DNA from: Ginglymostoma cirratum
Lineage: Eukaryota
Direction of reading: 5' to 3'
Assembly: GCA_024137785.1 (NCBI GenBank)
Contig: JAHRHZ010000013.1
Coordinates: forward strand, 28,539,003-28,603,002
DNA length: 64,000 bases
This document shows positions 6,893-63,419 of this stretch, piece by piece. Below the pieces are notes generated by a model. It was not told the origin of the DNA. It did no database searches and was given only the letters and a program-made list of their open reading frames with translations. How positions within the stretch are numbered: the stretch's first letter is position 1; each line of letters opens with the position of its first letter. Position numbers and translations under genes: made by a program.

Positions 6893-7115
6893 TACACAAA
6901 GAACTGCAGATGCTGGAAATCCAAAACAAAAATAGGGCTACAGAAACATAGCAGGGCTGGAGAAACTCAGGAGGGCTGGAGGCATCAATGGAGAGAAAAC
7001 TGTTAACATTATGTCCATTGGCATGAAGGGTCATTACACTCAATACATTAACATCACTTTTTCTCTGTATAGACTGCCAGACCTGTTGTGTTTCTCCAGT
7101 ACTTTCTAGATTTGG
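6893..7115. mobile_element. Older Penelope-derived fold-back element (family 2) with decayed HHR
   Basis: gaactgcagatgctggaaatc leader; gctggagaaactcag... is mirrored by ...ctgttgtgtttctccagt; central catgaagggtcattacactcaatacattaac is a decayed core. Confidence 0.7.
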
Positions 7116-8269
7116 CACAACAAATCTTTCTTTGCGGGGATATGTCTACATTGTGCCCATAGAATCTCATTGTGAATCTCTTCAGTTGATTTACTGCTGA
7201 CTTTCCTCCAGTAGCTGTAACTAGACCACCAATCATTGGCAGATCATCTCGCAGTTTTGTAACAATTAACATCATCCAATTTGTAACCTTTACTCCTGTT
7301 CAATCTTTGTCTCTTTCCGTTGTGATGCCAAATCTAACAACATTATGATCACTATTTCTAAAATAGTCACCCACTTTTACTTTATCCACTGCCCAGTTTC
7401 ATTTCCTCAGACTAAATCTAGGATTTCACCCTCTCTTATTGGGCCTATTATGTTCTGGATAAAATAAAAAATCTTAAATGCAGTTCAAGAAGTTTGTCCC
7501 TTCTGTGCTTTTTATGCACTGTTCATATATTTGTTGTCATTCAGTCATTGAAGTCCCCAACAATTATTGCCTTGTTGATTATGCTGTTAAATTTTCCTAC
7601 GTATTTGCTCCTCCAACTCTTGCAAACTAATTAGGGATCCATTGTGTACACTTGGCAATACGGCTGCTCCTTATGTTTCTGAGCCCAACACATATACCCA
7701 TATGATTGTCCAGCCTGTCCACGATTCCCAGAATTTACCCAATTGCCCCAGGAGTCTGATGTTCACCTGCCTATACCACTTCTTTAGCTACATATTCAAT
7801 GGCTTAATTCTCCTTTCTGTATACTCACTAACGCATGTGATCAGGAAGAATCCTGAGAAAACCACTTTGAAGGTTCAACCTGTCATGTGCCTAGCTTCCT
7901 GTACTATGCATTCTGGACCTCATCCTTATTCCTACTTAAGCCATCAGTACCAACACAAGATAACAACCTCTGGCTGATCCCCCTCCCACAGAAGGATGGC
8001 CCAACACGAAGGAGGTAACAAACTGTCCTGGAGTTATGTCACAGTGACAGCAATACCTGTCCAATCATCTGACTGTGGAGTACCCTATCACTACCTATTC
8101 TACTTACAGACCCACACCCCACTCCAATATCACCACTACTGACACAGCTGAGCTGTCCATGCAGTCACTGAGATAAAAGGTACTGCAGATGCTGGAGAAT
8201 CCGAGATAACAAGGCGTGGGGCTGGATGAACACAGCAGGCCAAGCAGCATCACAGGAGCAGGAAAACTT

Positions 8270-8297
8270 GACGTTTCGGGCCTAGACCCGTCATCAG
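8270..8297 (-). ncRNA. Minimal hammerhead ribozyme motif, antisense arm
   Basis: Reverse complement reads CTGATGAcGGGTCTAGGCCCGAAACGTC. Confidence 0.7.
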
Positions 8298-8316
8298 AAC
8301 CCTCTTCCCCTCCCCC

Positions 8317-8352
8317 ATTTCTGATGAAGGGTCTAGGCCCGAAACGTCAAGT
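8317..8352 (+). ncRNA. Minimal type-I hammerhead ribozyme motif (Penelope-type)
   Basis: attt-CTGATGA-a-GGGTctagGCCC-GAAAC-GTC-aagt: core, stem II, self-complementary ACGU stem III, predicted cleavage after C8348, weak 4 bp stem I. Confidence 0.75.
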
Positions 8353-9435
8353 TTTCCTGCTCCTGTGATGCTGCTTGGCCTGCTGTGTTCATCTAGCCCC
8401 ACGCCTTGTTATCATGGAGTCCCTGATTTGGGTTTGGCTGCACTCTTCTGATCAAATCTTATCTTCACCCTCACTATCATCCACAATATCAAGAGTATTG
8501 ATTAGCAAGAATGATAGACCAAGGGCATTCCAATATTGCCCACTTGGTATTCTTAGACTGCCCAATAGTTACCCATTCCTATATTCCCAGTGTATCTTTG
8601 ACTTGCGGTGTGGCAGCCTCTGTAAAGTGCTATCTTTGTGAACGTCTGCCTCTTGGATGGACAACAGTGATGCCAGCCACCAAGGGATGTTCTGAAACCC
8701 AGAGGTCAAGCTTGTGCAACTGGTGACATTTCCTGCAGATGACTGCATCTGAAATGCATGACTTCATACATTCTGCAGGATATACAATCTATTTGGCCAA
8801 GCTGACCTGCCATCCCATTACTTTAAAAAAAATCTATCTATTACAAATGTAATTGAAAAAAAAGTGCCAGTTCTCAAAAATTTGTTTCTTCCGTTGTACC
8901 AAAGGAACAGCCAACTACAGCAGGCTAAAAGCAGCAGAAAAAGAAAGGAGACCTTGCTCTTGTCCCTCACCAAACTCCCTCATACCGAATTCCCATTTCA
9001 CATTCTGTACAGTCAAAACAGCACTCACTGCATACAGGCAGCACTGAGGGAGGTCTCTATTTATGCTTCCTGCAAACGACTGTTGCAAACTTCAAAAAAT
9101 TAGAATATACCAGCTATTAATTAACTCGCAACAGCTTCTCTCAGAGCTTGTAAACCCTTGAAATAAGGCAGCAATAAAACTTAATTTCTCTTAAGGTAGA
9201 GTGTAATGTTTAGTTAATTGCTAAATTAAAGGAAAAACTAGACTTCAGACAGAAAAAAAACCTTATGATTCTCACACAGTGCAGCTCTCAGTGCAGGTAA
9301 ACTCCCTGGATCTACTTATCGACTCAGAGAAATTAGGTCAAATACCTGGGGAGAGCTGGATAAGGAAAAACAACACATACAATAAATACTCACAAAGAAT
9401 TAAGCAAAATAACTCATTTATGTACATATATAACT

Positions 9436-18455: not shown

Positions 18456-19438
18456 TTTTAGTGTATAACATATTCAAAGACTTCAGAAAAGAAAGGGAGG
18501 TTAAGGATGGGGTAACAGTTTGCAAGGAGCATGGAGTCATAGGGCTTTGTTTGAGCAGAGACTTGCTAACAGCAGATTTGAATGAGACAGGGATAGTACC
18601 TCAATAGAAACAATTACTCAAATCAACAGCTGATGCGGAGACCAGAAGCAGAACTTGGATGGTTGGCAGTTTAATAAGAATAGTTTCAATAAAGCAGAGG
18701 TGGGTCTCAATGATGAGTGGATCAACGAGCTGACAAGCAAGGCTCACAGCAGTCGCACAGGTTCTAGAGGCCACAGGGAGTGGGAGAAATGGACAGGGTG
18801 GAGGCGGTGAAACTGCCTGATCCAAGTGGCAGCCATCTGAGAATGACAGGTATATCATTGTGGTAATAGCCTATAACAAGGTGTGAACTGTAGATTGAAG
18901 CAGTTCAAACTGCTCAAAATAGTCAGCGCACTTTATATATTTTTTTCAAATTGACATTTATGATGAGGATAAATGCTTTGTGCAATTTATACAATGTATA
19001 GATATATGTATATACTGAATAATCTCCTTTATTAAGCACTTGGTGAGTCGAGACAAATTGTCACCTTCAGTAAAAAAAACCAGCTTAGAGGGCAGGCAAG
19101 AATTGGAACTGGACATCCAGGTACAATATAGGTCTCATCTCGCAAGTTATGAATTCTGTCCTCTTTATACTCTGACAAGAAAGTTGACAATTACAGCTGA
19201 TCCTTTAATTTGCAGAGCTCTGCATATAAATGTTAGTACAAACATAGGGGAACGAGTTGCTACAAAATGTTGGAATGTACTTGCATTATTCAATATTGCA
19301 ATATTAAACATTGTTTTGCACATTGAAAATCATGGGGTGCCCACCTACTATTTCCCAATATGCGCTCCTAGTGGGCAGGGCTTCCTACTGGTAATACACT
19401 TTGAGAAATTCATCCAAACCAAGTACATTTTATTCTCG

Positions 19439-19662
19439 AGATAGTAGGAACTGCAGATGCTGGAGAATCTGAGATAACACGGTGTTGGGCTGGATGAACA
19501 CAGCAGGCCAAGCAGCATCAGAGGAGCAGGAAAGCTGACGTTTCGGGCCTAGACCCTTTTTTTTTTTCTGAAGAAGGGTCTAGGCCCAAAACTTCAGCTT
19601 TCCTAATCCTCTGATTGCTGCTTGGCCTGCTGTGTTCGTTCAGCTCTACACCTTGTTATCTC
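19439..19662. mobile_element. Penelope-derived palindromic HHR element (family 1), copy B
   Basis: Arms 19471-~19558 and ~19574-19662 around a poly-T spacer; perfect 14 bp TSD acattttattctcg at 19425-19438 and 19663-19676; + core ctgaagaagggtctaggcccaaaac is mutated. Confidence 0.92.
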
Positions 19663-53869: not shown

Positions 53870-53950
53870 ACAGAAGAAGGGGCCCAACTTTCCTGCTGCT
53901 CTGATGCTACCTGGCCTGTTGTGTTCCTCCAGCTCCACACTGTGTTATCT
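53870..53950 (+). mobile_element. Family-1 single arm with internally deleted HHR
   Basis: cagaagaaggggcccaactttcctgctgctctgatgctacctggcctgttgtgttcctccagctccacactgtgttatct. Confidence 0.8.
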
Positions 53951-55600: not shown

Positions 55601-55807
55601 ATCTCATTTTGTTTGCAACTTTCCTGACTATTGTAACCATTTAAAAAGCTTCTGTTAACTAAATTTTGAGGAAAGAAAACTCGCTTTTGCCTTTCTGAGG
55701 AGGGGGACATGGAGCAAATTGACACATGAGCTGAGAATTTCCATTTTCAGTGAAGAATGATGCAGAATGGCTTCAATAAAAATGTCAACCCAAGCAGAGA
55801 AAGGTAT

Positions 55808-56020
55808 CAGAGATAATAGGAACTGCAGATGCTGGAGAATCCGAGATAACAAAGTGTGGAGCTGGATGAACACAGCAGGCCAAGCAGCATCATAGGAGCA
55901 GGAAAGCTTGACGTTTCGGGCCATTTCTGATGAAGGGTCTAGGCCCGAAACGTCAAGCTTTCCTGCTCCTATGATGCTGCTTGGCCCGTTGGGTTCATCC
56001 AGCTCCACACCTTGTTATCT
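55808..56020. mobile_element. Penelope-derived palindromic HHR element (family 1), copy C
   Basis: Arms 55843-55922 and ~55941-56020; intact + core ctgatgaagggtctaggcccgaaacgtc (55927-55954); perfect 13 bp TSD cagagaaaggtat at 55795-55807 and 56021-56033. Confidence 0.93.
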
Positions 56021-56663
56021 CAGAGAAAGGTATGTTGAGACTGCACACTAGTGTCCTTGGTCAGCTGATTATTCATCAATTTTAATTGCAGTTTTGCTTT
56101 TCAGCAGCAATAACCTAATGGAGCAGAGTTGTCATCGATCCTGATTTCATTTGGACTGTGTCAATCTTAGACTTAAATCCCCTTTCCTGCAGGGATACTC
56201 ATTTGTCACAACTTTTTGCTGCAATTAAGGATGTTCCAACAAAAATGAGAGCCGGTAGCATAACATTTAGTAGTTCTGACACATTTTACTACATTGAAGA
56301 TGGTGTAAAATACCATCCTTTCACTTATATTCCTGTTGGTTAAGCCAGAGTTAGAGATTGGTGTCAATTTATTTGTCAGTTATCGTTGTCAATATTATGT
56401 GGTGTGGTCTGGAACTACTGTCTTTGCACTTAATGAAGTCAATTAATTAATTGTACGATAACTGCTTGAGGTGGCTTCCTTACTGCTCTTCAATTAGAGC
56501 TAAAAGATCTTAATCCATGTCCACAGAAATAAATGGTACTGGTGTAACTGATGTTTATTTACTGAAATATTGGGGAATAAAAAAAGATAATGAATAAAGC
56601 CAGCTAGACAGCTGGCAAAGTTCATGCTTTTCCTTTCCAGGGTTGGCATCATCAAATGATGAT

Positions 56664-63244: not shown

Positions 63245-63336
63245 GATAACAAGGTATAGAGCTGGATGAACACAGCAGGCCAAGCAGCATCAGAGGAGCA
63301 GGAAGGCTGACGTTTCGGGCCTAGACCCTTCTTCAG
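63245..63336 (-). mobile_element. Family-1 single arm with intact minus-strand HHR
   Basis: Reverse complement reads CTGAAGAaGGGTCTAGGCCCGAAACGTC..; 10 bp TSD agagtttgtg at 63236-63245 and 63335-63344. Confidence 0.9.
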
Positions 63337-63419
63337 AGTTTGTGTTGTGTTTTGTGGACAACTAGAGGAAAATGTTTAAAAAAGCAAATGGAATCTTATT
63401 ATTTATCTTTCTTCTTACA

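Follow-up and report, generated by a model that had tools for sequence, protein, structure and literature searches.

Double priming as a candidate origin of a doubly truncated, head-to-head Penelope-like palindrome in the genome of Ginglymostoma cirratum

We describe a palindromic insertion at positions 8158-8426 of a 64,000-nucleotide stretch of the Ginglymostoma cirratum genome (hereafter, the window), and propose, with a probability of about 0.7, that it is a doubly 5′-truncated, head-to-head insertion of the pseudo-LTR of a Penelope-like retrotransposon, in which both target-site nicks are likely to have primed reverse transcription (RT) and the two cDNAs to have been joined end to end. 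This reading is drawn from genomic end products, and it builds on the observed identity of the arms, an empty site in relatives, a flanking duplication, a rule by which only one arm of a pair carries a tail, and the coupling of arm lengths within pairs. The family analyzed here bears on how Penelope-like elements finish integration and why they leave inverted copies with a one-sided tail, as it provides thousands of young, duplication-flanked products with statistics that favour double priming.

The sequence of the two arms bears out the geometry given in an initial annotation of this sequence. Inverted arms of 95 bp at 8205-8299 and 8319-8413, with mismatches at 8224 and 8290 only, enclose a 19-nt spacer (8300-8318), and the predicted hairpin reaches -217.4 kcal/mol (z = -27.9), a value equalled by none of 200 shuffles. 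The palindrome is flanked by a 14-bp repeat with two mismatches between its copies, the left one at 8158-8171 on the + strand (core 8159-8169, with the first C and the last GA common to the element ends) and the right one at 8413-8426, also on the + strand, where read placement puts the single copy of the empty allele. This allele, in which 8157 is joined directly to 8413, is found in contigs from two studies of a related organism (X1 record 1, X6 record 23), the X1 contig differing from the locus flanks at 34 of 946 bases, and a second organism (X13 record 9) also lacks the insertion and shows a further deletion of ~20 bp. The empty sites define a net insertion of 255 bp and make it a real and young one, either younger than the split corresponding to ~3.6 % flank divergence or polymorphic. 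The imperfect duplication and the single insertion originally postulated both stand.

The same evidence weighs on whether the palindrome could be a DNA-transposon MITE or the result of two independent head-to-head insertions. Long inverted arms, occurring at ~140 per unmasked Mb (98 in a random sample with 696 kb unmasked), would suit either possibility, but a single duplication encloses the pair and neither arm is present at the empty site, which argues against two insertions, while the duplications of the family vary in length (9-20 bp) and sequence, the ends are asymmetric, with a one-sided tail, and the arms belong to an RT-encoding element, all of which argue against a MITE. The variable duplications and the empty site refute both, and we give them next to no credence; the variation in duplications (12-17 bp) likewise upholds the original classification of the locus as a retro-mobilised carrier of a Penelope-type minimal hammerhead ribozyme (HHR) rather than a DNA-transposon MITE.

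In other copies, the sequence upstream of the spacer runs into a 3′ UTR and then into an ORF that encodes RT, followed by a CxxC linker and a GIY-YIG endonuclease. The spacer, correctly measured at 19 nt, is better described as the element's own 3′ UTR sequence upstream of the right-arm HHR (-23 to +2, with +1 at 8317), which meets the left arm through a 6-nt microhomology (8294-8299). The direct, tail-less arm extends over 8294-8413 on the + strand (element -23 to +97) and ends short of the TATA-like box at -31. The inverted, tail-bearing arm occupies 8205-8299 on the - strand (+97 back to +3) and is 5′-truncated within HHR stem I. An unpaired leader of ~33 nt had also been reported; it is present, and it proves to be the Penelope tail (8170-8204, - strand; element +98 to +132), carried by the left arm only. 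Two further palindromes of the family lie in the window (19438-19662 and 55805-56024), each with a one-arm tail, an exact duplication of 13-14 bp and a different centre, and solo arms and one diverged arm relative are present at 53889-53950, 63245-63337 and 6903-6955.

The ORFs located directly upstream of the arm span 703-890 aa and contain YIDD and YIGET motifs. Pfam detects GIY-YIG above cut-off and RVT_1 below it (E 9e-6), Atlas neighbours carry RVT_1, GIY-YIG and HTH_animal, and a C-x4-C-xx-C motif lies upstream of the endonuclease in L099. An RT query of the genome returned 57,142 candidates, and many of the 113 that were scored have open frames of 700-890 aa. According to PMC8557442, a CX2-5CxxC linker before GIY-YIG and a CCHH motif define Neptune, with the linker shared by Nematis. 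On sequence grounds, the arms are thus assigned to the 3′ pseudo-LTR of a Neptune-like, endonuclease-positive (EN+) Penelope element, the linker being common to Neptune and Nematis. The assignment brings together an RT and GIY-YIG ORF linked to a terminal repeat, an HHR-bearing pseudo-LTR, an inverted 5′-truncated copy and a tail at one end, and tails of 30-40 bp are described for EN+ Penelope-like elements (PMC11167929, PMC3846280, PMC8557442). Partial tandems of the element are present (L036, L093), and a complete 5′ end of the full-length element was not found among the loci examined. The ORFs of L097-L110 possess a variable Ala/Pro/Thr/Asp-rich repeat linker upstream of RT, with a number of units that differs between copies otherwise 99 % identical.

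Exact pattern counts, all of them lower bounds, yield at least 166,918 occurrences of a 27-mer of the arm in the 4.36-Gb genome, at least 64,762 intact 28-nt HHR cores and at least 5,860 instances of two head-to-head cores no more than 30 nt apart. By rough extrapolation from the density in random sequence, the genome would contain ~600,000 arms, older relatives included. Runs of N, exactly 100 or 400 long, occupy many palindrome centres (L174, L178, L185/L186, L259 and L266, among others), and the arms are often duplicated on either side of them, so the assembly probably breaks at hairpins and the counts are distorted.

The locus had originally been interpreted as a non-autonomous, retro-mobilised HHR element with a possible switch between self-cleavage and long dsRNA; on that view, the palindrome would be transcribed and would insert again as one unit. 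The abundance of short palindromes, their fixed outer ends and duplications, and a full transcript predicted to form a 95-bp hairpin hiding the HHR are compatible with such an element, but the centres of the palindromes are not. Among the 37 short palindromes with a readable centre in the 45 loci examined, 33 distinct centres were identified, and the centres of 50 listed loci with head-to-head cores are just as varied, their arms being joined by microhomology or through short templated inserts. Loci that have a complex centre in common (L290/L293, and this locus, L001, with L025) differ in which arm bears the tail and sit in unrelated flanks, which means that a master copy cannot be the source. 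Arm lengths, moreover, form a continuum from ~45 nt to 2.4 kb, in which ORF-length insertions are equally head-to-head, and sequence upstream of +1 is missing from most palindromes. The polarity result largely refutes propagation as a unit, which we now consider very improbable; the palindrome probably does not spread in this form, and each one seems to arise afresh from the end of an autonomous element.

The distribution of tails was assessed in 65 head-to-head pairs from loci not chosen for the tail (random stretches, pattern, promoter-region, ORF and centre matches, and the window), a set that excludes L001-L030 and L061-L070, omits loci with assembly gaps at the centre and does not chain pairs whose arms lie more than 120 bases apart, the interruption being mostly an N gap. 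Exactly one arm carries the tail in 59 of these pairs, with neither arm tailed in 4, both in 1 and 1 unclear. Given that about half of all arms are tailed (109/229), this one-tail rule departs from independence with p = 9e-13, and it is obeyed by seven further ORF-length head-to-head insertions (L091, L094, L096, L097, L098, L100, L104). Of the 65 pairs, 51 are flanked by a duplication of 9-20 bp (mostly 12-17, mode 14), versus 10/47 apparent solo arms scoring that high. Solo arms mostly lack a 12-17 bp duplication, some showing 5-9 bp or none. As a point against double priming, no partner was detected for 46 of 108 short arms.

Arm lengths are coupled within pairs (Spearman 0.64). The 43 one-tail pairs of the random and pattern sets divide into 29 short/short, 13 long/long and 1 mixed (p = 4e-10), and the arm reaching further 5′ is the tail-less one in 25 of them and the tailed one in 12, with 6 equal. 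Rare alleles common to both arms occur in 79 pairs 13 times, against 1.3 in shuffles that were not age-matched. Arm-arm discordance amounts to 10.4% at family-polymorphic sites versus 3.0% elsewhere, and 7/79 pairs differ at two or more such sites; this excess indicates that some pairs come from two templates or were converted later, and that a strict one-RNA model fails there.

These data allow double priming to be compared with self-priming, whereby the same element would generate the mirror arm from a hairpin of an antisense template (Arkhipova 2013) or by fold-back of the first cDNA, and endonuclease resolution would leave the tail. Self-priming has been proposed in print for head-to-head Penelope structures (PMC3846280), and the correlation of arm lengths, the rare alleles common to both arms and the many centres that resemble snap-back products agree with it. 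Fold-back from a tailed first strand, however, requires the tailed arm to be the longer one, and it is the shorter in 25/43 pairs; at this locus, the tail-less arm extends to -23 whereas the tailed one stops at +3. Simple fold-back is hence excluded in most pairs and at this locus. Arms that differ by more than 1 kb (L147, L229, L250), the excess discordance at polymorphic sites and in vitro starts on sense RNA (PMC11167929) also count against self-priming, and its antisense version explains the large asymmetries and the one-tail rule less directly. Overall, we deem self-priming unlikely.

The inner ends of the arms were read at the 5′ junction of 185/233 arms, the remainder adjoining N or the locus edge. 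They accumulate at -3 to +4 (53/185), with 59/185 lying beyond -30. Position +1 opens HHR stem I and has an initiator-like context, with TATTTAT starting at -31, in line with the TATA and initiator consensus. A non-templated G precedes +1 in 9/16 cases (p = 0.013), and extra T's are seen in 10/36 short arms versus 0/57 long arms; run-off over a capped 5′ end is expected, from work on LINEs, to leave such extra bases. We infer that the pile-up marks a transcription start, which would here be base 8317 on the + strand, though pausing of the RT ahead of the C-rich run may be its cause instead. A splice junction was rejected as its cause, there being no AG at -2/-1.

Under double priming, the GIY-YIG endonuclease would nick the two strands ~12-17 bp apart, and one 3′-OH would prime at the tail end (+132 to +140) while the other would prime at an internal site (~+97), with both cDNAs copied mostly from one RNA or from sister RNAs of one locus. 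Many templates would start with the opening base of HHR stem I (+1), and most cDNAs would consequently run off after 100-135 nt. The cDNA 3′ ends would then anneal through microhomology or short templated inserts, and each could template the second strand of the other; at this locus, the join would have used the 6-nt microhomology and a template reaching at least -23. With the tail-start enzyme trailing the internal-start enzyme on one RNA, the tailed arm would tend to be shorter, and the population rules would follow from two nicks that each prime one cDNA, one per site and mostly on the same RNA, and from the joining of the inward cDNAs. In vitro, two RT start sites bounding the tail have been demonstrated for the anole Poseidon element (PMC11167929), and the Poseidon protein nicks and extends both strands and is predicted to form a dimer, the later steps being left unvalidated in the accessible text. 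These supporting data pertain to another clade, in which the tail lies inside the ORF. At the insertion sites of the present family, the target beside the tail-less end often starts with AWGG (L001, L014, L015, L021, L024, L026, L003, L006, L007, L013), and targets at the tailed end often have 2-4 bases in common with the tail end; target-RNA microhomology or nick preference are possible reasons.

A precedent for the use of both nicks is L1 twin priming, in which both target nicks prime cDNA and yield a 5′ inversion joined by microhomology, with the two cDNAs copied from separate, non-overlapping stretches of a single RNA and the internal start site varying. The difference is that here both cDNAs would copy one segment from two fixed sites ~35 nt apart, which results in a palindrome. 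We tentatively extend the proposal to Penelope-like elements at large, with odds that we place slightly below even: a dimeric RT-endonuclease would use both nicks and one capped RNA starting at the first base of the hammerhead, with one subunit at the tail end and the other ~35 nt inside, and the cDNAs would prime each other, making a separate second-strand step unnecessary. If this were true, it would have left a direct fossil record in tens of thousands of copies within one vertebrate-sized genome, made up of the palindromes, the one-tail rule and the lag of the tailed arm. The intact ORFs and the 130-nt template that the family supplies make the integration mechanism testable.

Published work on Penelope-like elements already covers the architecture, the tail and HHR pairs on opposite strands, and the population statistics are our addition. 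In published EN+ insertions, an inverted, 5′-truncated pseudo-LTR is accompanied by a 30-40 bp tail (Arkhipova 2013, PMC3846280; Craig 2021, PMC8557442), and the present family resembles them in its head-to-head copy, a tail often at one end only, a single duplication around the unit and an HHR in the pseudo-LTR. It differs from the insertions described in those papers in that both copies are cut to ~100-130 nt, leaving a pure palindrome, and in that its copy number, in the tens of thousands, makes the one-tail rule, the coupling of arms and the 5′-end pile-up countable. In both sources, the tail is attributed to resolution by the endonuclease and the inversion to self-priming, the antisense form of which dates from 2013 (PMC3846280). 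The family also resembles Poseidon PAc of the green anole (Frangieh 2024, PMC11167929), where two RT starts bound the tail, both strands are cut and extended, and a minimal HHR lies upstream of the starts. The PAc HHR and tail overlap the ORF start, whereas here the reading frames opened by the two pseudo-LTR ATGs, as read from the sequence, end within the pseudo-LTR and a CxxC linker precedes the endonuclease; as far as its accessible text goes, the PAc paper does not derive the inverted structure from double priming. Non-LTR retrozymes (bioRxiv 10.64898/2026.07.22.740005; see also PMC7229834) are similarly non-coding, HHR-bearing derivatives of Penelope pseudo-LTRs, but they are described as head-to-tail tandem units, thought to spread through a rolling circle, in contrast to head-to-head pairs with a unique centre, and neither head-to-tail arrays nor descent from a master copy, with common centre and polarity, was found here. 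Our literature search, which lay outside subscription journals and paper supplements, retrieved no report of palindromes of this family, of such statistics or of Penelope double priming, and no occurrence of the term twin priming among the papers listed; the family may well be present in Repbase or Dfam.

The presence of an HHR core on both strands, CUGAUGA-N-GGGU(CUAG)GCCC-GAAAC-GUC, was confirmed by reading the sequence. The predicted minimal type-I hammerhead of the + strand (8317-8352) comprises a 4-bp stem I (8317-8320/8349-8352), the core 8321-8327, an extra A at 8328, stem II at 8329-8340 and a palindromic ACGU that replaces stem III, with the predicted cut after 8348. Its counterpart on the - strand (8268-8299) has C as extra base against the family's A, and a predicted cut between 8270 and 8269. 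Stem I, previously described as weak, forms only 2 bp in this second copy. All the hallmarks of minimal type-I hammerheads are thus represented: the two conserved cores (CUGANGA and GAAA), stem II, an extra base following A9, a palindromic stem III and a short stem I. The extra base had been considered a departure from the canonical core, but an extra base between 9 and 10.1 is typical of the metazoan Penelope minimal HHRs (Cervera and De la Pena 2014, PMC4209133), for which that paper also lists the absence of a stem III loop, a palindromic 15.2-16.2, a G10.1-C11.1 pair and a short stem I, as found here. The same source reports dual HHR motifs on opposite strands 100-700 bp apart in Schistosoma, stems II of 7-8 bp in minimal HHRs, compared to 4 bp here, and ~9,000 Xenopus motifs, termed remarkable, compared to our 64,762 exact cores, the two counts stemming from different search methods. 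In HHR searches of the kind that the initial annotation had suggested, a minimal-HHR descriptor produced 39 matches in a random genome sample and 0 in each of 5 shuffles, and an Rfam scan of the locus reported no hammerhead family and only miRNA hairpin models below gathering scores. Annotation of such palindromes as MITEs or miRNA hairpins should be avoided.

The suggestion that a transcript would fold into a ~95 bp hairpin that sequesters the ribozyme is supported in silico, since the predicted stem II pair probability is ~1e-19 in the full palindrome versus 0.02 and 0.58 in the two single arms, and the palindrome would thus bury the ribozyme in a read-through transcript. The cleavage/dsRNA switch postulated for this copy may be explained more simply as a by-product of insertion, the default reading given thousands of such palindromes. 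Without the -31 box and with its ribozymes presumably buried, the palindrome product is probably a dead end, and the locus by itself is an ordinary dead copy. As a genomic proxy for cleavage, junction matches at the HHR cut site numbered 209 (nominal pass rate 1/16), versus 454 at a control (nominal pass rate 0.32), which after scaling amounts to an excess at the cut site of at most ~2-fold, biased by junction composition; 16 of the 100 cut-site junctions listed are intact arms with a one-base insertion. Any second pile-up of arm ends near the cut is weak, with 20 of 185 ends at +29 to +39, 16 at +13 to +28 and 7 at +40 to +47. A role for HHR dimers as an RNA-pairing signal would be speculation, the modelled ACGU duplex reaching only -1.7 kcal/mol and the co-fold preferring stem II pairing. 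In run X17, which stems from another organism and is RNA only by guess, the repeat is covered via other copies and the flanks are almost uncovered. Several families coexist, and HHR variants of related ones feature a CUGAGGA core, a 5-bp stem II and a GUU cut triplet (L158:7172-7301, L197:1688-1774, L120 and the L019 flank), with stems I and II that still pair despite the base changes.
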